NCBI GenBank assembly: GCA_946221385.1
Contig: CAMIGX010000002.1
Coordinates: 10,824 to 74,823 of the forward strand
Origin: an uncultured Propionimicrobium sp.
Lineage (GTDB): Bacteria > Actinomycetota > Actinomycetes > Propionibacteriales > Propionibacteriaceae
Length of the DNA: 64,000 nucleotides
Direction of reading: 5' to 3'
The position numbers were made by a program, and so were the translations under genes. This document shows, piece by piece, positions 3,804-55,340 of the stretch. Within the stretch, counting starts at the first letter, position 1. Every line of letters begins with the position of its first letter. Under the pieces are notes generated by a model, which saw nothing but the letters and a program-made list of their open reading frames with translations, was not told where the DNA came from and ran no database searches.

Positions 3804-5610
3804 GATGCGCGGGCTGCGTCCGCACGACGCGGAACGCGTCAACCCCGCGGACCGAGCGCAACTGGACCGCAAACCCGTACCACCCAAGCGACTCTTGGCG
3901 CTGTTCAAGCCGCATGCGGGCACGATCACGCTGGTCATGGGGCTGATCGTCGTCTCATCGCTGGCCGGACTGGCGCAACCGTTCTTGGTTCGCGAAGTCA
4001 TTGACGTCGCGATCCCCGAACAGCGGACTGGCTTGCTGATCGGATTAGTCGTCGGCATGCTCGCGGTGACGATCGTCGCCCAATTGGTCGGCATCGCGCA
4101 GACCTGGCTCAGTTCGCGCACCGGTCAGCGCGTGATGCATTCGCTGCGCAGTGAAGTATTCGCCAATCTGCAGCGGCAATCCTTGGGATTTTTCACCCGC
4201 ACCCGTTCTGGCGAGGTGCAGTCGCGACTGATCAATGACGTTGCCGGCATGCAATCCATCGTGACGACGTCTGCGACTGCAATCGCGACGAACCTGACAA
4301 CAGCAATCGCTACTGCTATCGCGATGGTCGCTTTGAGTTGGCGGCTCAGCTTGCTGTCGTTGATCGTCTTGCCGCCTGCGATCTTGTTGACGCGCCGAGT
4401 CGCGCTGATTCGCCGCGACGTAACCGCTGAGCGACAAGCCACGATGGCTCAAATACATGGTGTCGTCGAAGAGACCTTGTCGGTCTCCGGGATGCGGTTG
4501 ACGAAGACCCTGGGCGCTCAAGAACGGGTGCAACGCCGCTTCGAAAAAATCTCTAGCCGATTGATCGATCTAGAATTGCGTTCCCAGTTAGCTGGGCGTT
4601 CGCGCATCGCGACGATGCAGATCATGGTCGGCGCGATCCCAGCGCTGGTCTATCTCGTCGCCGGCTGGCCAGGACTGACTCCTGGCATGACGATCGGCAC
4701 CTTGATCGCATTCACGACGCTGCAAAATCAGATCTTCCGTCCACTGCTGGGCTTGTTGAATATCGGCGCGCAGTGGGTCGCGTCGATGGCACTGTTCAGC
4801 CGGATTTTCGAATATCTGGACCTCGAACCAGAGATCCCTGAGCCGAGCGAGCCGGTCGCCATTGATCCAACGCAGGTGGTCGGTGAGGTGCGTTTCGAGG
4901 GCGTCAGCTTCGCCTATCCGGACTCCGCGGTCCCGGCTTTGACAGATATTGACCTGACCATCCCGGCGGGTCAGACTCTCGCAGTCGTCGGCGAGACCGG
5001 TTCGGGAAAATCGACGCTCGCTTCGCTGCTGGCCAGGCTAAATGATCCAAGCTCTGGGCGGATCTTGATTGACGGGATGGATCTGCGTCAAATATCAGCT
5101 AGCGACCGCGCCAAGTTGATCGGCATGGTCAGCCAGGAGACCTATCTGATGCATGACAGCGTCCGCGCCAATCTGCTGCTGGCTAGGCCGAACGCTAGCG
5201 AAGCGGAGCTGTGGACGGCGCTGCAGATCGCGCAAATTGACCATCTGATCGCCGATCTTCCAGACGGCCTAGAGACGCTGGTCGGCGCCCGCGGCTATCG
5301 CTTCAGCGGTGGCGAGCAGCAGCGCATCGCGATCGCGCGGACGATCCTGCGCAATCCCCCAATCTTGATCTTGGACGAGGCGACCAGCGCATTAGATAAC
5401 GAAACTGAACGCGAGGTGCAGGCGGCGCTTGACGCATTGGCCCAGCATCGCACGACGTTGACCATCGCTCACCGGCTGTCGACGGTGCGAAATGCCGAAT
5501 CCATCGCGGTGTTGGACGCTGGCCGCGTCGTCGAGCTTGGCGAGCACGAACAATTGCTAGCGGCCGGTGGTCGATACGCGCTACTCGCCCAACAATCAGT
5601 GGCCGACTAG
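3796..5610 (+). CDS. ABC transporter, fused transmembrane and ATP-binding domains (type I exporter half-transporter)
   Basis: Six predicted TM helices N-terminally; Walker A GETGSGKST, ABC signature LSGGEQQR, Walker B ILILDEATSALD. Confidence 0.8.
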   Translation: MSEMRGLRPHDAERVNPADRAQLDRKPVPPKRLLALFKPHAGTITLVMGLIVVSSLAGLAQPFLVREVIDVAIPEQRTGLLIGLVVGMLAVTIVAQLVGIAQTWLSSRTGQRVMHSLRSEVFANLQRQSLGFFTRTRSGEVQSRLINDVAGMQSIVTTSATAIATNLTTAIATAIAMVALSWRLSLLSLIVLPPAILLTRRVALIRRDVTAERQATMAQIHGVVEETLSVSGMRLTKTLGAQERVQRRFEKISSRLIDLELRSQLAGRSRIATMQIMVGAIPALVYLVAGWPGLTPGMTIGTLIAFTTLQNQIFRPLLGLLNIGAQWVASMALFSRIFEYLDLEPEIPEPSEPVAIDPTQVVGEVRFEGVSFAYPDSAVPALTDIDLTIPAGQTLAVVGETGSGKSTLASLLARLNDPSSGRILIDGMDLRQISASDRAKLIGMVSQETYLMHDSVRANLLLARPNASEAELWTALQIAQIDHLIADLPDGLETLVGARGYRFSGGEQQRIAIARTILRNPPILILDEATSALDNETEREVQAALDALAQHRTTLTIAHRLSTVRNAESIAVLDAGRVVELGEHEQLLAAGGRYALLAQQSVAD

Positions 5611-23267: not shown

Positions 23268-23341
23268 GCGGGCGTAGCTCAATGGTAGAGCGCCAGCTTC
23301 CCAAGCTGGACACGCGGGTTCGATTCCCGTCGCCCGCTCCA
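23268..23341 (+). tRNA. tRNA-Gly (anticodon CCC)
   Basis: 74-nt cloverleaf: acceptor GCGGGCG/CGCCCGC, D-arm GCTC..GAGC, anticodon stem CCAGC/GCTGG with loop TTCCCAA, T-loop GGTTCGATTCC, encoded CCA. Confidence 0.85.
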
Positions 23342-46698: not shown

Positions 46699-47451
46699 GT
46701 GAATGACTGGATTGACGACGACGAAGACGACTTCCTCTCCGCTGGCTTCGGCGGAAAATCTGACGACCAAAGCAACGACGAAAGTCCCACCGAGCCACCC
46801 GCTGACGGCGGCGAGCTCGCGATGGACGAGGAAGGCTGGACCCCCGCCGCAGGTTTCCCCGACGGCACCAACGCGGTGCGGCTCTGGGCCGATGAGGACG
46901 GCAATCTGAGCAAAGTTCGAGTCTCACTGGCTTGGAAAGAAAAGCTGCGCAACAGTTCGCTTTCGACCGCTTTCATGATCGCGTTGACCTATCTCAACGG
47001 CTGGTACCAGTTCGGCAGCCTGGACGAGGGTGACGTCTACGACGACGTGCCCGATTCGACTTCCAAGCAGCTGCTGTCTGCCGAGGCGTTAGCAGCCCAC
47101 CGCCGCGCCACCACTGAACTTCACCAGCGCATCATGGACACCCCTGGTCCGAACAGCATCGTCAAGGGAAGCCCAGCTAGCGCCAGCGATTATGACGGCG
47201 CGGTGACGGTGACCCTAGACCCAAGCGGACGAGCCTATCGCGTCGATTTTGACGAGGAATGGCTCGAGAATGAAGCTAACTCGGCAGCTATCGCTCGTTC
47301 GGTGATGAACTGCTATCGCTGGGCCAAAGCGAAGTGGCGGCCACCGACGGTCGAGCTCACTGAGCGCGGTGAATTACTGCGCGAACAACGCAAGCTGAGC
47401 AAGGAATTGGACGCGATGTTAGCTAATGGCGTCCAGATCTCTCGGGGCTGA
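46699..47451 (+). CDS. cassette 1 protein A: acidic protein with YbaB/EbfC-like C-terminal region
   Basis: GTG start with a CAGGAGG RBS. N-terminus MNDWIDDDEDDFLSAGFG shared with A2/A3. C-terminal ...SDYDGAVTVTLDPSGRAYRVDFDEEWLENEANSAAIARSVMNCYRWA resembles the YbaB/EbfC consensus G.V.V.V.G.G..V.ID..L..D.E.LEDLI.AA.N.A. Confidence 0.6.
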   Translation: MNDWIDDDEDDFLSAGFGGKSDDQSNDESPTEPPADGGELAMDEEGWTPAAGFPDGTNAVRLWADEDGNLSKVRVSLAWKEKLRNSSLSTAFMIALTYLNGWYQFGSLDEGDVYDDVPDSTSKQLLSAEALAAHRRATTELHQRIMDTPGPNSIVKGSPASASDYDGAVTVTLDPSGRAYRVDFDEEWLENEANSAAIARSVMNCYRWAKAKWRPPTVELTERGELLREQRKLSKELDAMLANGVQISRG

Positions 47452-47544
47452 TGACCGATCAAAGGCCACAATAGAGATTGCAAGCCCTTGAACGCATGAC
47501 TCGGCGACCAAACGTCGAGCGTACCAACGTCACGAGGAAACGCG

Positions 47545-48867
47545 ATGAGCCAATTTCCGTTCGAAAAGCCAGCTAACGACCCGCAGCGCGCTGCCGAAAG
47601 CGGCGCCACCGGGTACAACCGTGAAACCGATGACGAACTGCGCGACCTCGAGCTAGGCGAAGGCAATATCAACCCCGGTTCGCAACGCAGCGGCAGTGGC
47701 GCCGGCGGCCCCGGCGGCATGATGCCGCCAATGATGGGCATGATGGGCCGCGGCGGCGGCGCGGGTGCCGGCGCCGGCGCTGGCGGCGCAGGCGCGATGA
47801 ACGCCGGCATGATGGGCGCGACCGCGGGCCGGGCTGGCACCGTCCCAATGGGCGCGGCAGGCGCGGGCGGCATGGGCCCCGGCGGCGTCGGCGCTGGCGG
47901 TATCGGCTCAGGGGTCGGAGCAGGTGGCATCGGAGCCGGTGGCATTGGCGGTGTCGGCGGCCTGGGCAATTTCCCGCGCACCGGCGGCACGATCGCAGCT
48001 GGCGCGTCCGGCTCAGGCTATTCGCCCTATGGCATCAATCCTGCGACCGGAGAGCCCTGGAAGCCGTCCGATCCCGGCTACCCGCCGATCGGTGGCATCG
48101 GCGCCGGCTATACCCCGCCGAGCTTCACCCCTTATCAGCCTCGCGATTTCAGCTCCACTGGCGTCGGCGGCATCAACGGCTCTATGCCTAGTGTCACGCC
48201 CCCCAATTTCAATGCCAACACTCCCGGCGTGCAGGCACCGAATATCAATGGCGTGCAAGCTCCCAATGCGAGCGGCATCAAGCCCCCGTCGGCCTCTGGC
48301 ATTGATTCGCGGACGGGCCTGCCAATCGACCCCAAGACTGGCCTGCCAATCGACCCCAAGACGGGATTGCCGATTGATCCGGTCACCGGCAAGCCATTCG
48401 ACCCAAACGCGCCTGGCGTCGACGGCGTGAATCCGGCGACCGCCCCGATTTCAGCACCAGCCGGCGGCCCGTCAGGCGGACCCGCGGGCGGACCCAGCAT
48501 CGCAGGTCCTGGCGGTGGCCCCGACAACAGCTACAACGTCGACACCGCAGATCTGGATAACACCGGCAAGCATTGGGATGCGTTGGGTGACCAGATGCGG
48601 CAGATCGAGCAGCAGATCGCTCAGTTGGTCGTTGCTGCGGCAGAATTCGGGCTAGTAGACGACCCTGCCGCAAACTATGCCGAGGCGCAACGCGAAGCGA
48701 ACGTCTCGGTCTCTCGCTCGGCGAACAACTTCGCGACTAATGCGTCCAACCTGGGCGCTTCGTCCAACAGCTATGCCGACGCAGAAGCTACCAACACCGC
48801 TGCTGCAGCTGCCACATTGGGTGGCGGCGGTGGCGCTGGCGGCCAGCAGACTTATTCGATCAATTGA
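47545..48867 (+). CDS. cassette 1 protein B: Gly/Ala/Met/Pro-rich low-complexity protein with IDPKTGLP tandem repeats
   Basis: Conserved N-terminus MSQFPFEKPA...AAESGATGYNRETDDELRDLEL, a long G/A/M/P-rich middle, four 8-aa repeats, and a conserved helical C-terminal ~100 aa (...TGKHWDALGDQM...AAEFGLVDDP...). Confidence 0.65.
   Translation: MSQFPFEKPANDPQRAAESGATGYNRETDDELRDLELGEGNINPGSQRSGSGAGGPGGMMPPMMGMMGRGGGAGAGAGAGGAGAMNAGMMGATAGRAGTVPMGAAGAGGMGPGGVGAGGIGSGVGAGGIGAGGIGGVGGLGNFPRTGGTIAAGASGSGYSPYGINPATGEPWKPSDPGYPPIGGIGAGYTPPSFTPYQPRDFSSTGVGGINGSMPSVTPPNFNANTPGVQAPNINGVQAPNASGIKPPSASGIDSRTGLPIDPKTGLPIDPKTGLPIDPVTGKPFDPNAPGVDGVNPATAPISAPAGGPSGGPAGGPSIAGPGGGPDNSYNVDTADLDNTGKHWDALGDQMRQIEQQIAQLVVAAAEFGLVDDPAANYAEAQREANVSVSRSANNFATNASNLGASSNSYADAEATNTAAAAATLGGGGGAGGQQTYSIN
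48301..48396 (+). repeat. 24-bp coding tandem repeat (IDPKTGLP unit, 4 copies incl. degenerate ends) in B1
   Basis: ATCGACCCCAAGAC(T/G)GG(C/A)(C/T)TGCC(A/G) units read directly from the sequence. Confidence 0.6.
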
Positions 48868-48883
48868 TGCAGGAGACGATGTC

Positions 48884-49771
48884 ATGATGCAAGCAATGAT
48901 TGGCGCCGAAGGTGGCAACGTCAGTAGCGGAGTGTTGACGCAGACTGCTGATGACTTGAAGCAAATGGCTGAGGACGCGATCCGGACGGATCAGCAGGAA
49001 CTGGACGCGGCCCTGAACGCCGTCCAAGATAACTGCTTCCGCGGTGGGCACAACGCCCAAGCGACCATCGACGCCTGCAATGCCTTGGCACAACAGCTAC
49101 GCGAGATGGTCAAGCAGATGGCAGATGTGACGCGCAACACCATCGCCAAGAACTGCGACTACGCAGAAAAGATTGAGCGGGAGGTGACCCCTGGTTGGGA
49201 GTCGGTGCTCGAGCAGCTCAAATCGGTCCACGAAGAGATGCGGACGTTGAAGATCGACAGCTGGCAAGGCACCGCAAGCAACGCGTATCACACCAAGGTC
49301 GGTACGCAAGTCAATGACACCGCCAAACACATCGGCCTGTCACAGAACGCCAGAAATTCCATTGAAGCGGTCTCGCTGGTGCAGCGCGGTATCACCGAGC
49401 AGGCATATAGCGCGCTGCTGAACGCTATGTCCGGTGCACAGGGCACGGTTAGCCAATCGGCGGAAAGCTTCTCTAAGGGCTCTTGGTTTAGTCGCGGTGC
49501 CAATGACCAAGAATTCAGTTTCAACTTCTATCGACGCACCGCGGCCATGCTGAACTCCTGCGCACCACAGCAGAGCGTGCTCAATGAGTTGGCCGGCGGT
49601 AATCCGTGGCGGCCCACTTCGACGGGCATTGCAGACCAGCTCGGCACCGCGCTGACGGAGGCCCGTGCCGATCAGGAGATCACGGCTGGCAACTACGACT
49701 CGACCGTCGACCAGGTGGGCGACGAATACAAGTCCGATCTAGACGTCGACCTGGTTAAAATTCAGCGCTGA
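48884..49771 (+). CDS. cassette 1 protein C: helical protein with W-x-G motif
   Basis: Start MMQAMIG with an AGGAG RBS. Motif KIDSWQGTASNAYHTKVG (W-x-G...AY), conserved with C2 and C3, and two conserved Cys (DNCFRGG, KNCDYAE). Confidence 0.6.
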   Translation: MMQAMIGAEGGNVSSGVLTQTADDLKQMAEDAIRTDQQELDAALNAVQDNCFRGGHNAQATIDACNALAQQLREMVKQMADVTRNTIAKNCDYAEKIEREVTPGWESVLEQLKSVHEEMRTLKIDSWQGTASNAYHTKVGTQVNDTAKHIGLSQNARNSIEAVSLVQRGITEQAYSALLNAMSGAQGTVSQSAESFSKGSWFSRGANDQEFSFNFYRRTAAMLNSCAPQQSVLNELAGGNPWRPTSTGIADQLGTALTEARADQEITAGNYDSTVDQVGDEYKSDLDVDLVKIQR

Positions 49772-49802
49772 AAATCCGATACTCAGGCCAAAGGCTCGTT
49801 TT

Positions 49803-49847
49803 AGGCCACTCGTCTTGATCGAACTCGATCAATCGAACGAGTGGCCT
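49803..49847. terminator. bidirectional terminator hairpin between cassette 1 C and D
   Basis: Outer stem AGGCCACTCGT / ACGAGTGGCCT (11 bp) enclosing an inner palindrome TTGATCGA-ac-TCGATCAA; followed by TTAACTTTT. Confidence 0.5.
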
Positions 49848-49856
49848 TTAACTTTT

Positions 49857-50966
49857 CTACCGCTGCACCTCTTTGCCGTCTTGATCTAGCCAAACACCTT
49901 GACTGCCATCCGCCGCGACAACGCCAATCACTACAGTCTTTTCGTCAAATTGTTCGACGCGCAGTGGGCTATTTGGACGTGGCTTTAGGCCGCGCTGCAG
50001 CAAATTATCGAGTTGGGCATGCAATTTATCGCGATCGATAGTCTCGAAATTCAAATAGTGCTGTGGTTTAACGTCATTGCCTGAAGTTCTGCGCATTAGC
50101 GGTTGAATCATTGGAGAATTTACGAAGGATGAAAGCGCATAGCTAGGAGTTGCCTGTAAACCCGAGCAAGCTCGGAATGATTCACCGGTCGATTCCAACT
50201 TCGCGAACGGCAAGTCATAGTGGCTGGCGATGGCAAGGATCTTGTCTAATTCGTCGTGTTCACCCTTGACCTTGGTGGTGTAGGCAGTGCCGTTGATGGT
50301 GAAATCGTAGGTGTGCGGCAGTTGAGTGTTATAACCCGTATCGCATTTGTGCGTGAACATTGGGGTACCGTCTGGCAGCAGCACCATTCGTGCTAGCCAG
50401 AAATCTTTCTTGTCGCAGGGGGCGGCGTCGATGTATGTCTGGAAGGCATTTAAATGCTCGGACGTCACCTTGACATTCTTTAAATCCTGCAGATAAGGAT
50501 TGCTGTCGAGTCTGCCGCTTTTATCGCTATCAAAAGGATGTTCACTGTAATAGTTCAAAGTTTTACCTTCATACCAATACAAATCCAGATAATAGGTGCG
50601 ATTGCGCAGATCCTCTTTAGCGACCGGACCGAGCCGCCATTCCAGCATGGACGCTTTGCCGTCCGGCGTCTTAGAAATCATCGACGACCATTGCTCTGCC
50701 AAAGCGGGACGTTTGGGGCCGCGCGGCGCGAAATTCCAAACCAGATATACCGTCAAAGCAGCGACCAGCAGCGCGCTGACGACGATCCACAGCGTTCGCC
50801 GTCCCTTCTTCTTGGGCGGCTGGCTTGAGGACTGCTGCACGCTATTCATCGCATGCTGGCCAAAGCCCTGTTGGGGATAACCCTGCGGCGGATAGCCCGG
50901 CTGCGGACGGTCAGGTGGTGGGATATTCGGCTGGGGGCGGCCGGGCATTGGGTGGTTAGCGCTCAT
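49857..50966 (-). CDS. cassette 1 protein D: single-pass membrane protein with Pro/Gln-rich N-terminal tail and conserved extracytoplasmic domain
   Basis: Start MSANHPMPG (shared MSAN start with D2). N-terminus PQGYPQQGF-rich, then KKKGRR plus TM helix. Conserved motifs shared with D2/D3: EQW...EWR.GP, YYLDLYWY, FTHKCDTGYNT, LQQRGLKP. Confidence 0.6.
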   Translation of the reverse strand: MSANHPMPGRPQPNIPPPDRPQPGYPPQGYPQQGFGQHAMNSVQQSSSQPPKKKGRRTLWIVVSALLVAALTVYLVWNFAPRGPKRPALAEQWSSMISKTPDGKASMLEWRLGPVAKEDLRNRTYYLDLYWYEGKTLNYYSEHPFDSDKSGRLDSNPYLQDLKNVKVTSEHLNAFQTYIDAAPCDKKDFWLARMVLLPDGTPMFTHKCDTGYNTQLPHTYDFTINGTAYTTKVKGEHDELDKILAIASHYDLPFAKLESTGESFRACSGLQATPSYALSSFVNSPMIQPLMRRTSGNDVKPQHYLNFETIDRDKLHAQLDNLLQRGLKPRPNSPLRVEQFDEKTVVIGVVAADGSQGVWLDQDGKEVQR

Positions 50967-51120
50967 CTTCGAAACTCCAAGCGTCCGGGGGATATGGCTC
51001 AGCGTAACGGATTGGCAACTGCTTTAACGGCCATCGGCGTCGTCAACTCATCGGATGAATCGACACCTCGCAGTTGACCCCCTAGGCCTAGGCTGTTGAC
51101 CACGCACCCCAGGAGCAACC

Positions 51121-51858
51121 GTGAACGACTGGATCGATGACGAAGACGAGGACTTTCTCACCGCTGGCTTCGGGGCCGCAGCAGAAGCTGACGATTCCGC
51201 CGAACAGACTGACCTGGCCGATCAAGAGCATGCTGAACCTGCCCTTGACGAGGCGTCCTGGGAGCCCAGTGCTGGTTTCCCGGACCCCAGCAATTCGATT
51301 CGGATCTGGGCTGACGAGGACGGCAACCTCACCAAGATCCGCGTCTCATTGTCGTGGCGCGAGAAACTCCAAGGCAGCCTGAGCGACGCGTTCAATGTCA
51401 CCTTGATGTACCTCAATAATTGGTATCGCGTCGCGCGGTTGGATTTCAGCGTCGATGACGGCCCGGCGGTACATACGACACGGCAGTTTTCAGCTGACGC
51501 GCTGCGCGAAGTTCAACAGCGAATCGAGCAGCTCGACGCCCGACTGGCGCAGTTGCCCGTCGAAGACGAGCAAAAATTTGACGGCGCTAGCGTCAGCGCG
51601 TCCGATTATGACGGCGCCGTGAAGATGACCTTGGATCTGCACGGCTACCCCAGTTCGGTCTATATCGAGCAGAAATGGGCCGAAGAAGAGGCTAATGCCT
51701 CGGCTATCTCGCGATCGGTGATGAACTGCTATCGCTGGGCGCGAGCAAAGTGGAGGCCACCGACGCAGGCGGTGTCTGAGCGTGGGCAATTGCGGCAAGA
51801 ACGCGAACAGCTGAGCCGTGAACTGCTGGCCATGATGAGCAATGGCATCGCCAGTTAA
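51121..51858 (+). CDS. cassette 2 protein A (paralogue of 46699..47451)
   Basis: GTG start with a CAGGAGC RBS. MNDWIDDEDEDFLTAGFG N-terminus and the same YbaB-like C-terminal block ...SDYDGAVKMTLDLHGYPSSVYIEQKWAEEEANASAISRSVMNCYRWA. Confidence 0.6.
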   Translation: MNDWIDDEDEDFLTAGFGAAAEADDSAEQTDLADQEHAEPALDEASWEPSAGFPDPSNSIRIWADEDGNLTKIRVSLSWREKLQGSLSDAFNVTLMYLNNWYRVARLDFSVDDGPAVHTTRQFSADALREVQQRIEQLDARLAQLPVEDEQKFDGASVSASDYDGAVKMTLDLHGYPSSVYIEQKWAEEEANASAISRSVMNCYRWARAKWRPPTQAVSERGQLRQEREQLSRELLAMMSNGIAS

Positions 51859-51932
51859 ACCCGGCCATGACCCCCTATCAGGGGAGAATGGAACCATCTG
51901 AATCAAGTTCAGCATCGTGACGAGGATCCGCT

Positions 51933-53312
51933 ATGAGTCAGTTTCCGTTCGAAAAACCAGCCAAGGACGCTAAGCGCGCCGCGGAAAGTGGCGCCACCGG
52001 GTACAACCGTGAAACCGATGACGAGCTTCGCGACCTCGAGCTGACCGAAGGCAATATCAACCCTTCCTCGCAGCGCAGCGGTGGCGGCGCTGGTGGCCCC
52101 GGCGGCATGATGCCGCCAATGATGGGCATGATGGGCCGCGGCGGCGGCGCGGGTGCCGGCGCCGGCGCTGGCGGCGCAGGCGCGATGAACGCCGGCATGA
52201 TGGGCGCGACCGCGGGCCGGGCTGGCACCGTCCCAATGGGCGCGGCAGGCGCGGGCGGCATGGGCCCCGGCGGCGTCGGCGCTGGCGGTATCGGCTCAGG
52301 GGTCGGAGCAGGTGGCATCGGAGCCGGTGGCATTGGCGGTGTCGGCGGCCTGGGCAATTTCCCGCGCACCGGCGGCACGATCGCAGCTGGCGCGTCCGGC
52401 TCAGGCTATTCGCCCTATGGCATCAATCCTGCGACCGGAGAGCCCTGGAAGCCGTCCGATCCCGGCTACCCGCCGATCGGTGGCATCGGCGCCGGCTATA
52501 CCCCGCCGAGCTTCACCCCTTATCAGCCTCGCGATTTCAGCTCCACTGGCGTCGGCGGCATCAACGGCTCTATGCCTAGTGTCACGCCCCCCAATTTCAA
52601 TGCCAACACTCCCGGCGTGCAGGCACCGAATATCAATGGCGTGCAAGCTCCCAATGCGAGCGGCATCAAGCCCCCGTCGGCGTCGAATATCGACCCCAAG
52701 ACCGGACTGCCCATTGATCCCAAGACCGGGCTCCCGATTGACCCCAAGACCGGACTGCCGATCGACCCCAAGACCGGGCAGCCGATCGACCCCAAGACCG
52801 GGCAGCCGATCGACCCCAAGACCGGGCAGCCGTTCGATCCGAACGCACCCAACGTCAATGACGTCAACGCTGCGAGCGCCCCGATTAGCGCGCCCAGCGG
52901 TGGACCTAGCGGCGTCCCGGGTGGCGCCCCAGGCATCGGCGGTCCCGGCGGCGGCCCCGACAATAGCTACAACGTCGACACTGGCGATTTGGACAACACC
53001 GGTAAGCACTGGGACGCGCTCGGCGAGCAAATGCATCAGATTGAGCAGCAGATCGCCCAGCTGGCCGTCGCGGCAGCCGAGTTCGGCCTAGTCTCCGACC
53101 CAGCGTCGAACTACGCAGAGGCTCAGCGCGAGGCAAATGTCTCCGTCGGACGCTCCGCCCAGAACTTCACGACCAACGCCACCAACTTGGGCACCTCCGC
53201 GAATAGCTACTCCGACGCCGAAGCGACCAACACTGCAGCCGCAGGCGCCACGCTCGGTGGCGGCGTCGGTGGAGGCCGCGTTGGCTCCCAGAACTCGTAC
53301 ACGATCCACTGA
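51933..53312 (+). CDS. cassette 2 protein B (paralogue of 47545..48867) with six IDPKTG[LQ]P repeats
   Basis: Shares an apparently identical ~590-nt tract with B1. Six 24-bp repeat units at 52689..52832; conserved C-terminal helical block. Confidence 0.65.
   Translation: MSQFPFEKPAKDAKRAAESGATGYNRETDDELRDLELTEGNINPSSQRSGGGAGGPGGMMPPMMGMMGRGGGAGAGAGAGGAGAMNAGMMGATAGRAGTVPMGAAGAGGMGPGGVGAGGIGSGVGAGGIGAGGIGGVGGLGNFPRTGGTIAAGASGSGYSPYGINPATGEPWKPSDPGYPPIGGIGAGYTPPSFTPYQPRDFSSTGVGGINGSMPSVTPPNFNANTPGVQAPNINGVQAPNASGIKPPSASNIDPKTGLPIDPKTGLPIDPKTGLPIDPKTGQPIDPKTGQPIDPKTGQPFDPNAPNVNDVNAASAPISAPSGGPSGVPGGAPGIGGPGGGPDNSYNVDTGDLDNTGKHWDALGEQMHQIEQQIAQLAVAAAEFGLVSDPASNYAEAQREANVSVGRSAQNFTTNATNLGTSANSYSDAEATNTAAAGATLGGGVGGGRVGSQNSYTIH
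52689..52832 (+). repeat. 24-bp coding tandem repeat (IDPKTG[LQ]P unit, 6 copies) in B2
   Basis: Six consecutive 24-nt units; the last three are identical (ATCGACCCCAAGACCGGGCAGCCG). Confidence 0.65.
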
Positions 53313-53330
53313 TTTAGGAAGCGAATAGTC

Positions 53331-54215
53331 ATGCACGCGATGATGGACGCCGGCGGTGGCGCGGTAAGCAGCTCTTTGCTCACTACGACTGCCGATGAGT
53401 TGAAGACTCTGGCCGATACTGCGATAGCTAACGATGAAGCGGAGCTACAAGCCGCGTTGAACGCCATCCAGGACAACTGTTTCCGCGGCGGTCACAACGA
53501 GCAAGCGACTAGGCAGGCCTGCGACGCACTAGCCCAGCAACTGCGGGACATGGTCAATCAGATGGGCGAAGTCACCAAAAACAGCATCGCGAAGAACTGC
53601 GACTACGCCGAGAAGATCGAACGCGAAGTCAGCCCCGGTTGGAGGAATGTCGTCGATCAACTGACCGCAGTGCGCGAAGAAATGAATGCCATGAAGATCG
53701 ACAGCTGGCAGGGCACGGCCAGTGACGCGTACCACACCAAGATCGGCAAACAGATGAATGATGCCAACAAGCACATTGGTCTGTCGCAAAATGCCAAGGG
53801 CTCGATTGACGCGGTTGCGTTGGTGCAGCGCGGAATCACCGACCAGGCATATTCGGCATTGCTTTCAGCCATCAGCGGCGGCAGTTCGTCGGCTAATCGC
53901 GCGCCGGCGAGTTTCACCAAGGAATCTTGGTTTAACCGGCAAGCAAATGACCTCGAGTTCAGTTTCGAATTTTATTCCCGCACTGCTGCCATGCTGAATG
54001 CTTGCGCGCCCCAGCAGAGCGTCTTGAACGAGCTAGCTGGTGGCAACCCTTGGCGTCCGACGTCGACCGGTATCGCCGATCAGCTCGGTGTGGCGATCAG
54101 CGAAGCCCGTTCAGACCATGACATCGCCACCGACCAATACGATTCGACGGTCGACAAGGTCGGCGATCAGTACAAGTCTGACCTCGACGAAAGCGGCCGC
54201 CAGATCCAGCGCTGA
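53331..54215 (+). CDS. cassette 2 protein C (W-x-G motif protein, paralogue of C1)
   Basis: KIDSWQGTASDAYHTKIG, DNCFRGG, KNCDYAEKIERE; about 65% identical to C1 by eye. Confidence 0.6.
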   Translation: MHAMMDAGGGAVSSSLLTTTADELKTLADTAIANDEAELQAALNAIQDNCFRGGHNEQATRQACDALAQQLRDMVNQMGEVTKNSIAKNCDYAEKIEREVSPGWRNVVDQLTAVREEMNAMKIDSWQGTASDAYHTKIGKQMNDANKHIGLSQNAKGSIDAVALVQRGITDQAYSALLSAISGGSSSANRAPASFTKESWFNRQANDLEFSFEFYSRTAAMLNACAPQQSVLNELAGGNPWRPTSTGIADQLGVAISEARSDHDIATDQYDSTVDKVGDQYKSDLDESGRQIQR

Positions 54216-54227
54216 TCGCAACACGAT

Positions 54228-55340
54228 TCAGCGCCGGACTTCGTTACCGTCCTTGTCTAGCCAGGTGCCTTGGGTGCCATCCAATGACGTGATGCCGATG
54301 ACGACGGTCGATTCGTCGAGTTGCTCGATTCGCAGCGGCGTCGAAACGGACGGCTTCAGGCCGCGCTGCTGCAGGTCAGCGATTCGCGCGTGCAATAGTT
54401 CTCGATCCAGCGTCGCGAAGTTCAAGTAGTGCGTTGCTTTGGCGCTGGTGCCGCCCCCGGTCATGATCGGCTGCAGCATCGGCGCGTTGACCGGCACGGC
54501 CAGCGCATAGCTAGGAACTTGCTGCAGGTCTGAACCTGCCTTGAATGCGCCACCGGTAGATTCAAGTTTTGCGAAAGGCATTTCAAAGTGCCGCGCGACC
54601 GCAATGATCTTGTCTAATTCAGATTCTAGGCTTTCGAATTTCGTCGAATATTCCACACCGTCAATCGAGAAGTTCCGCGTCGCAGGCAATCTATTGGTGT
54701 TAAAGGCGGTGTCGCATTTATGGGTGAACATTGGTGCCCCGTCAGGCAACATCATCATGCGCGCCACCCAGAATTCTCCGCCGCTGGTGTCACACGGTGC
54801 TGAATCGATGTATTTTTGGAAATCCGCTAGGTGCTCATCGAGAATTTTGACGTTCCCCATGCCTTGGACGGGCTCCCAGCCCGGCACTGGGCCATTTTGC
54901 GCGCTGTCCATCGGATGTTCGGTGTAATAGTTCAATTCCGATCCGTCATACCAATAAAGGTCTAAGTAGTACGTCGGCTTGGAAATGTCGTTGCCCGTGG
55001 GGCCGTCACGCCATTCCATGATGGCGACTTCGCCATTTGGCGTATGAGCCATTTGTGCCGCCCACTGCTCAGCCAAATCCTGACGCTGCTTTCCGCCACC
55101 CGAAAAATTCCAAATCAGAAAGACCGCTAGAGCCACGACCAACACCCCGACGATTGCGATCCACAGCCAGCGGCCCCTCTTCTTCGGTGGCTGCTGAGCG
55201 TTGCCGTGCGGAGCTGACATTGGGGGTTGGGCGGCAAAACCCGGCTGCTGTGCAGCGTTGGGCTGCGTAGGGCGCGACATGGGTGGCTGATTCGCATTCC
55301 AACCCTGCGGACGGCCAGCTGGGGGATAGTTAGCGCTCAT
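54228..55340 (-). CDS. cassette 2 protein D (membrane protein, paralogue of D1)
   Basis: Start chosen at MSANYPPAG, by analogy with D1 and an identical TAGCGCTCATCTTCGAA start context. TM helix plus conserved extracytoplasmic motifs. Confidence 0.55.
   Translation of the reverse strand: MSANYPPAGRPQGWNANQPPMSRPTQPNAAQQPGFAAQPPMSAPHGNAQQPPKKRGRWLWIAIVGVLVVALAVFLIWNFSGGGKQRQDLAEQWAAQMAHTPNGEVAIMEWRDGPTGNDISKPTYYLDLYWYDGSELNYYTEHPMDSAQNGPVPGWEPVQGMGNVKILDEHLADFQKYIDSAPCDTSGGEFWVARMMMLPDGAPMFTHKCDTAFNTNRLPATRNFSIDGVEYSTKFESLESELDKIIAVARHFEMPFAKLESTGGAFKAGSDLQQVPSYALAVPVNAPMLQPIMTGGGTSAKATHYLNFATLDRELLHARIADLQQRGLKPSVSTPLRIEQLDESTVVIGITSLDGTQGTWLDKDGNEVRR

Follow-up and report, generated by a model that had tools for sequence, protein, structure and literature searches.

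How do two tandem genes with saturated flanks come to share 587 bp without a single difference? The question is raised by a window of 64,000 nucleotides, the whole stretch of DNA analysed here, from contig CAMIGX010000002.1 of an uncultured Propionimicrobium sp. At 46.6–59.7 kb, between the UDP-glucose dehydrogenase gene and pgi, the window carries three tandem cassettes of 4.4 kb. Each cassette is made up of gene A (+, about 250 aa), gene B (+, 436–459 aa), gene C (+, about 295 aa) and gene D (−, 337–370 aa). The shared DNA lies in B1 and B2, the B genes of cassettes 1 and 2 (Table 1). The identity was very probably produced by homologous non-reciprocal recombination (gene conversion) between these tandem paralogues, in several steps, within the three-cassette array.

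Extent of the identical tract

In an ungapped comparison at a fixed offset of 4388 bp, nt 47707–48293 of B1 equal nt 52095–52681 of B2 over 587 bp, with 0 mismatches. The nearest mismatches are at 47706 before the tract and 48294 after it. A preliminary description of this DNA had noticed about 590 bp of identical sequence here and proposed a pairwise alignment as a check. The alignment bears the observation out, showing no scattered mismatches and an unbroken run between the two bounding positions. The B1 copy had been placed correctly in that description, and the B2 copy had been started at 52094, one base too early. The second-longest identical run between cassettes 1 and 2 is 35 bp. When the columns of the B1/B2 alignment were shuffled 5000 times, no run was longer than 75, against the 587 bp observed. 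The analytic probability of a 587-bp run is about 1e-55, or about 2.5e-45 using the lower divergence of the 5′ flank.

The flanks are strongly diverged. B1 and B2 differ at 26 sites of the first 162 nt (16%), and downstream of the tract the divergence is about 25–55%, plus indels, so that the one position in eight given in the preliminary description was too low. By the Nei-Gojobori method, the proportion of synonymous differences (pS) between the two genes is 0.49 in the 5′ flank (codons 1–54) and 0.72 in the 3′ flank (codons 250 to the end). Codons 55–249, in the tract, show 0 differences over about 159 synonymous sites, as had been suggested from the sequence alone.

The tract covers two different parts of the gene. 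Codons 55–181 are the family-conserved part, which is rich in Gly, Met and Pro and has PSDPGYPP at its end, and codons 182–249 are a family-variable region with a proportion of nonsynonymous differences (pN) of about 0.5. The expectation that B3 encodes a similar protein with mostly synonymous differences was also right: over codons 55–181 B3 gives a pN of 0.04 and a pS of 0.33, and a relative on contig L031 a pS of 0.40. For the tract codons pS against B3 ranges from 0.33 to 0.79. Because the identity extends over synonymous sites that vary freely and over the variable codons 182–249, the tract cannot be explained by selection acting on protein or nucleotide sequence.

Sister species and strain variation

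A contig of ERZ1029978 (L033) holds the syntenic locus of a sister species, with two cassettes; its pgi and argS are 95% and 87% identical to those of the window. Over the 5′ 546 nt the identity between its B genes, sB1 and sB2, is 82%, and the two have no identical tract. As sB1 and sB2 are not homogenised, the homogenisation of B1 and B2 is specific to the window's species.

All the sequences compared are short-read de Bruijn assemblies. Within the window's species a second haplotype group is found in ERZ27289756, ERZ27290029, ERZ27289841, ERZ1031337 and JGI 3300012314, where B1 is carried on contigs L027, L028 and L002 and B2 on L011, L012, L015 and L016. In these strains B1 and B2 differ solely at five sites in 47778–47840, and from 47841 onward the assemblers merged the two copies. 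The identity in this group comprises 453 bp (47841–48293) plus 71 bp (47707–47777). At the five sites B1 of the other strains agrees with sB2 at 5/5, and B2 of the other strains agrees with B3 at 4/5. The perfect identity of the first 134 nt of the tract is limited to the window strain, or possibly to its assembly. The simplest reading of these alleles is that B1 of the window lineage received the derived B2 alleles at the patch. The B2 gene on L015 has two further variants, one of which, 52463 G, is the B3 allele. Such paralogue-matching variants are predicted by ongoing conversion.

Mosaic history of the B genes

The tree topology shifts along the gene. Upstream of the tract B2 groups with sB2, and at 47637–47706 it is B1 that does so. 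In the latter segment, where B1 matches sB2 back to about 47637, about half of the B2 alleles are common to B3 or sB1. From this pattern we infer an older transfer of B2-type sequence into B1, starting near 47637, and, later, the overwriting in B2 of the 5′ end of this tract by a patch about half B3-like in its alleles, which made the sharp edge at 47706/47707. The likeness of B3 to B1/B2 over 47962–48074 has a P of about 1e-8 to 1e-10, and B3 probably exchanged sequence with B1/B2 separately from the main tract.

Further observations concern the borders with the sister species. The segment 51873–51989, when compared with the upstream region and first 57 nt of sB2 on L033, shows 1 difference in 117 nt. 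This near-identity of the B2 promoter and 5′ end across species could reflect either an exchange between lineages or strong constraint. A2 and the 5′ half of B2 (51089–52491) are 88% identical to the sister species (L031 1101–2484, L033 11985–13374). Alignability ends abruptly at about 52491, which corresponds to 48103 in B1 and to the end of PSDPGYPP. Beyond this point the 3′ half of B, C and D of the sister species form a different, barely alignable module, which suggests an exchange of modules at the 52491/48103 boundary. At 4663–5231, between argS and a HlyIII gene, L033 also carries a gene for a PemK-type toxin and, upstream of it, a small open reading frame (ORF), neither of which is present in the window.

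Table 1. Positions of the cassettes, B genes, shared tracts and strain variants in the window
Feature	Position	Strand	Remarks
Cassette 1	46699–50966		A1 46699–47451 (+), B1, C1 48884–49771 (+), D1 49857–50966 (−)
Cassette 2	51121–55340		A2 51121–51858 (+), B2, C2 53331–54215 (+), D2 54228–55340 (−)
Cassette 3	55489–59561		A3 55489–56250 (+), B3, C3 57650–58546 (+), D3 58548–59561 (−)
B1	47545–48867	+	440 aa
B2	51933–53312	+	459 aa
B3	56319–57629	+	436 aa; third paralogue
Identical tract, B1 copy	47707–48293	+	Codons 55–249 plus 2 nt; 0 mismatches to 52095–52681
Identical tract, B2 copy	52095–52681	+	Ungapped comparison with B1 copy
Uninterrupted core	47841–48293	+	453 bp; no copy-specific differences in any sampled strain
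Copy-specific patch	47778–47840	+	Sites 47778, 47781, 47820, 47832, 47840; four synonymous, one T/S
24-nt tandem repeat array, B1	48301–48383	+	PIDPKTGL units, about 3 copies, just 3′ of tract
24-nt tandem repeat array, B2	52689–52867	+	About 6–7 copies
B3-linked near-identical segment	47965–48074	+	2 mismatches in 110 nt against 56730–56839 (+) of B3; conversion-like, older
Mosaic segment	47485–47601		B2 vs sB2 1/117; B1 vs B2 41/117 differences
Mosaic segment	47637–47706	+	B1 vs sB2 1/70; B2 vs sB2 16/70 differences
Mosaic segment	47962–48074		B3 vs B1/B2 4/113; B1/B2 and B3 vs sister-species genes 17–23/113
Alleles, B1 of other strains (reached from A1)	47778/47781/47820/47832/47840		C,A,C,A,G
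Alleles, B2 of other strains (reached from A2)	47778/47781/47820/47832/47840		A,T,G,G,C
Alleles, window B1 and B2	47778/47781/47820/47832/47840		C,T,G,G,C
Alleles, sB2 (sister-species B2 orthologue)	47778/47781/47820/47832/47840		C,A,C,A,G
Alleles, B3	47778/47781/47820/47832/47840		A,T,G,G,A

Assembly evidence for the layout

The window is 100% identical to NODE_2 of ENA ERZ1031113 (SPAdes, coverage 19). ERZ1031113, ERZ1031755 and SRR1647118 are 100% identical where shared; they are independent assemblies, not necessarily of independent samples. The upstream contig of ERZ1031755 (SPAdes, k = 55), NODE_40, stops at 47761, 55 nt into the tract. A loop contig of the same assembly, NODE_1311, covers 48239–52149 and reaches 55 nt into each tract copy; the end of the SPAdes loop contig (L013) is at 52149, 55 nt inside the 5′ edge of the B2 copy. 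The Logan loop contig (k = 31) begins 30 nt before 48294, and the MEGAHIT loop contig (k = 141) spans 48153–52681 with a terminal overlap of 141 nt finishing at 52681. Loop contig L011 ends at 52681, the 3′ edge of the tract in B2. The breaking of three assemblers at the same tract edges indicates that reads from both contexts share the tract sequence.

The coverage in ERZ1031755 is 18.05 for the loop contig and 18.43 for the flanking contig. Equal coverage means a single loop per genome, as in the three-cassette layout. In addition, L015 of ERZ1031337 covers the entire B2 with unique flanks. The concern that the tract is an assembly chimera is thereby largely answered, from assemblies and not from reads.

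Two-cassette contigs are also found, in JGI 3300012314 (L002, 1311–5444) and in the MEGAHIT assembly of ENA ERZ27289756 (L027, 6001–10254). Both equal window 46699–47706 joined to 52682–55340 and carry a hybrid B1/B2 gene of 459 aa. ERZ27289756 also holds the missing 3.8-kb loop as a separate contig (L012). For JGI 3300012314, exact look-ups of C1, D1 and A2 gave no loop contig, though one changed residue would be enough to hide it; scans of metagenome contigs with D1 and with a 30-nt pattern from the tract end gave no match, the known JGI contig included. Most likely the two-cassette contigs are assembler shortcuts through the 587-bp repeat, or at most signs of a mixed population. A real deletion allele was considered for L002 and L027 and rejected as unproven, the loop contig being present in the same ERZ27289756 sample.

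Proposed steps of the exchange

The history is more complex than a single recent event, with a core tract that is older, an extension confined to the window strain and a distinct tract involving B3. The tract ending at 48293 was homogenised before the sampled strains diverged, since its 3′ edge is common to all of them and the 453-bp core is uninterrupted in every strain. The B2 alleles at 47781–47840 may then have been copied into B1 of the window strain, extending the identity to 587 bp, unless the assembler smoothed these sites. The 110-nt segment with 98% identity between B3 and B1/B2 shows exchange of sequence among all three copies.

The 3′ edge of the tract may be fixed by the 24-nt repeat array, and the 5′ edge at 47706/47707 would be secondary. 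The distance from the tract end to the array is 7 nt. The arrays of B1 and B2 differ in the number of units (about 3 vs about 7), so that a heteroduplex would be unable to extend in register, and the length heterology is a plausible barrier to its extension. The peptide repeat IDPKTGLP also occurs in otherwise unrelated proteins of 395–559 aa (P0006–P0008), and P0006 and P0008 additionally bear GG(M/V)PPMMPPMGMGG near the C-terminus. The net effect of the proposed steps would be that the N-terminal half of B, comprising the conserved motif, the Gly/Met/Pro-rich region and PSDPGYPP, evolves in concert, while the C-terminal half of B and genes A, C and D diverge freely.

Alternative explanations

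Gene conversion, which had been offered from the sequence alone, accords with the saturated flanks, the identical synonymous sites, the 82% identity of the sister-species pair and the paralogue-matching strain variants. Several points tell against it in part. De Bruijn assemblers can pop bubbles between near-identical copies, so that a few hidden differences in the tract are possible; the strain-specific identity at 47781–47840 (four sites) could be a SPAdes bubble collapse; the older core event may have run in either direction; and the order proposed for what happened at the 5′ edge was reached by parsimony from no more than five genes. The stronger form of this objection, that truly differing copies were collapsed by bubble popping or mis-joined through the repeat, is an unlikely account of the tract as a whole. 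The window is indeed a short-read SPAdes contig that lacks the five copy-specific sites of other strains, and the MEGAHIT shortcut L027 beside the loop L012 in ERZ27289756 shows that the repeat confuses assemblers. Yet assemblers with k = 31, 55 and 141 all break at identical edges, loop and flank are equally covered, and MEGAHIT, which kept the five-site patch as two haplotypes, found nothing to separate past 47841. Nor is the window's own haplotype, C,T,G,G,C, simply either of those found elsewhere. Even a handful of hidden single-nucleotide differences would leave at least 99% identity, against 50–85% in the flanks, and the inference of conversion would stand. Smoothing by the assembler has distinctly more to be said for it when confined to the patch at 47781–47840, where it is a possible, though not the favoured, origin of the identity.

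Among the biological alternatives, unequal crossing-over, or a recent segmental duplication whose flanks diverged later, is permitted by direct repeats 4388 bp apart, and the two-cassette hybrid contigs are joined within the tract. The saturated flanks, however, cannot postdate an event young enough to spare 587 bp. The hybrid and loop contigs co-occur in ERZ27289756, the coverage in ERZ1031755 is equal, and no deletion allele is demonstrated. A single crossover would also run the identity out on one side, and the copy number appears stable; unequal recombination, which the preliminary description had set beside conversion, therefore lacks support and is very unlikely. More improbable still is the independent import of one allele into both copies from another strain or species. 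Upstream of B2 the identity to the sister species is 99% (1/117), compared with 95% for pgi and 87% for argS, a hint that lineages have exchanged DNA at this locus. For the tract, however, the same import would have had to happen twice with the same end points; no outside donor of the full tract was found, and the closest outside B proteins are 54–58% identical and diverged within the tract. Finally, a constraint at the nucleotide level (an embedded RNA, a regulatory element or an overlapping gene) might maintain identity without recombination. The region of the Met-rich motif at 47707–47760 is unusually conserved across all five compared B genes, and there are long antisense ORFs, such as 47313–47990 (−). 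But B3 and the sister-species genes differ at a third to half of the synonymous sites in codons 55–181 (pS 0.33–0.40) and are unalignable or saturated over codons 182–249, there is no Rfam match, and the antisense ORFs are a Pro-rich mirror of GGC-rich Gly codons. This explanation is effectively refuted by how far B3, sB1 and sB2 have diverged at synonymous sites in these codons, and its probability is negligible.

Genes of the cassettes and their surroundings

Outside B, cassettes 1 and 2 have 45–77% nucleotide identity, and cassette 3 is more distant. At the protein level cassettes 1 and 2 are 49% identical for A, 86% for B, 70% for C and 53% for D. B1 consists of a conserved N-terminal motif, a Gly-rich low-complexity part, Pro-rich repeats and, at the C-terminus, a helical hairpin some 100 aa long. 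For C1, the mechanical ORF of 48677–49771 (364 aa) extends back into the 3′ end of B1; the start at 48884 (295 aa) is backed by the gene calls of public assemblies and by the alignment with C2 and C3. The D genes, on the minus strand, are the fastest-diverging members of the cassettes, with 30–53% identity. Their proteins are predicted to have a Pro/Gln-rich N-terminus, a putative single transmembrane stretch (by eye) and a domain of about 290 residues, and they match no family or structure.

LGFP and cutinase genes are among the neighbours. The Pro-rich antisense ORFs at 47313–47990, 51938–52378 and 56342–56755 (−) were considered as genes and rejected, being the mirror image of GGC Gly codons. 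PADLOC gave no match to a defence system, and the Rfam and tRNA scans gave only a tRNA-Gly at 23268 of the window.

Putative function of the B family

The best functional guess, made from sequence and predicted structure, is that the cassettes encode putative type VII secretion substrates. A1 matches Pfam YbaB (PF02575) with 17.9 bits (cutoff 25.5), over residues 161–212 only. C reaches 22.3 bits for WXG100 (cutoff 27.3), 17.5 bits for EspA_EspE (PF18879, cutoff 27) and 22.9 for TIGR03930 (cutoff 44.85). It has an invariant SWQG motif, and its AlphaFold2 (AF2) model is a long helical bundle with a predicted template modelling (TM) score of 0.70.

The C-terminal part of B, about 100 residues, is modelled by AF2 as a helix-turn-helix hairpin with helices at 9–42 and 51–100 and a predicted local distance difference test score of 72.5. 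In a Foldseek search with the hairpin, which is a low-information fold, all of the first 15 PDB matches are Esx/WXG100 proteins, with TM scores of 0.49–0.78 on the query and E values of 0.07–1.1. Among eight homologous C-terminal domains of B, WXG100 matches in 6/8 and EspC in 4/8, all weakly. The domain of B1 matches WXG100 with E = 0.064, under the Pfam threshold; the best EspC match of the B family has E = 1.3e-4, under the gathering score, and the Tessaracoccus homologue of B reaches 21.0 bits for EspC against a cutoff of 23.5. The turn of the hairpin is FGLVxDP, without W-x-G, and helix 1 contains an invariant Trp (HWDALG). Near the C-terminus Y-A-D-A-E of B1 and Y-S-D-A-E of B2 fit YxxxD/E; F-E-A-A-E of B3 does not.

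The B family is small and unannotated. In a word-indexed search B had 8 matches and C had 4. A profile built on the 80 N-terminal residues of B (RAAxSG..GY..TDDxL..LE..INP..GGPGGMMPPMMG) retrieved 91 cluster representatives from 1.84 billion proteins. The motif (encoded at 47545–47800) stands at the N-terminus in almost all family members (P0013–P0100), a few of which reach significant WXG100 scores at their C-termini. Among 44 wider members, WXG100 matches in 3 (best 8.4e-7) and EspC in 5. A scan of genome contigs located only distant relatives, in Propionibacteriaceae and Nocardiopsaceae; a distant homologue on L019 adjoins gyrBA and pilus/sortase genes.

Against a role in type VII secretion it must be said that every functional assignment lies below the curated thresholds. 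The window contains no type VII core gene (EccC etc.) and no ORF longer than 739 aa. No type VII core stands beside the distant homologues, where gyrBA, DUF3566 and pilus/sortase genes are found instead. A fold search with the C1 model is uninformative, giving only generic long-helix matches with a TM score of at most 0.29, and PDB sequence searches with A1, C1 and D1 gave no meaningful match.

Significance of the array

Gene conversion is well known; the locus and the gene family are new. The current understanding of conversion itself is unchanged. The locus provides a non-mycobacterial case of concerted evolution confined to one portion of a gene, whose family is small, unannotated and of sub-threshold likeness to ESX substrates. 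In families of this kind in M. tuberculosis, gene conversion is known to shape antigen diversity. The homogenised N-terminal half, set against the fast-diverging partners, suggests which part of B has a shared function and which part meets a variable partner.

On a more speculative note, which we hold to be rather unlikely, the array may be a recombination-driven system with a constant head and a variable tail. Repeated conversion would hold the 5′ half of B uniform, as an exchange substrate and for a shared function in secretion or anchoring, and the 3′ half of B would be exchanged in modules together with C and D. The break point between species at about 48103 supports the proposal. If true, it would make the array a type VII-like analogue of polymorphic-toxin and antigenic-variation loci in a host-associated actinobacterium.

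The repeat is also a trap for short-read assembly. At least two public assemblies (L002, L027) have an apparently false two-cassette layout, and without long reads neither the number of genes nor the alleles called at this locus can be relied on.

Comparison with known systems

In mycobacterial ESX-1 the YbaB-like proteins EspH and EspD are chaperones of EspE/F and EspA/C (PMC6107294). The cassettes resemble the triads EspD-EspC-EspA and EspH-EspF-EspE in that A is weakly YbaB-like, as are EspD, EspH and EspL, B has an EspC/WXG100-like C-terminal hairpin, and C has weak EspA_EspE/WXG100 matches plus a W-x-G. A, B and C are also co-oriented and adjacent. Unlike the triads, the cassettes have matches below the Pfam gathering scores, a different gene order and no ESX core genes nearby. 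B differs by an N-terminal extension of 330 residues, which is disordered and rich in Gly and Pro, and the cassettes include a fourth gene, D, predicted to encode a single-pass membrane protein.

The pattern of the B1/B2 tract is otherwise familiar. Conversion dependent on RecA gives concerted evolution of tufA/tufB in Salmonella and of pilE/pilS and opa in Neisseria. As in these systems, synonymous identity in the B genes is confined to a tract, the flanks are diverged, and the tract stops where homology is interrupted. Conversion of the tuf genes preserves whole genes, and pilE/pilS is a directed system from donor to expression site, whereas in B only part of the gene is homogenised, with no evident asymmetry between silent and expressed copies.

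There is also a parallel in Mycobacterium tuberculosis, where the PE, PPE and esx paralogues undergo recurrent gene conversion and carry paralogue-matching variants (Marin et al., bioRxiv 2026, PMC13061034). Both there and in the B genes the exchange is non-reciprocal and takes place between (putative) type VII substrate paralogues, the paralogue-matching variants are clustered, and short reads resolve the copies poorly. The B paralogues differ in forming adjacent tandem cassettes of an unannotated family, and in showing homogenisation of the N-terminal half, not documented epitope diversification.

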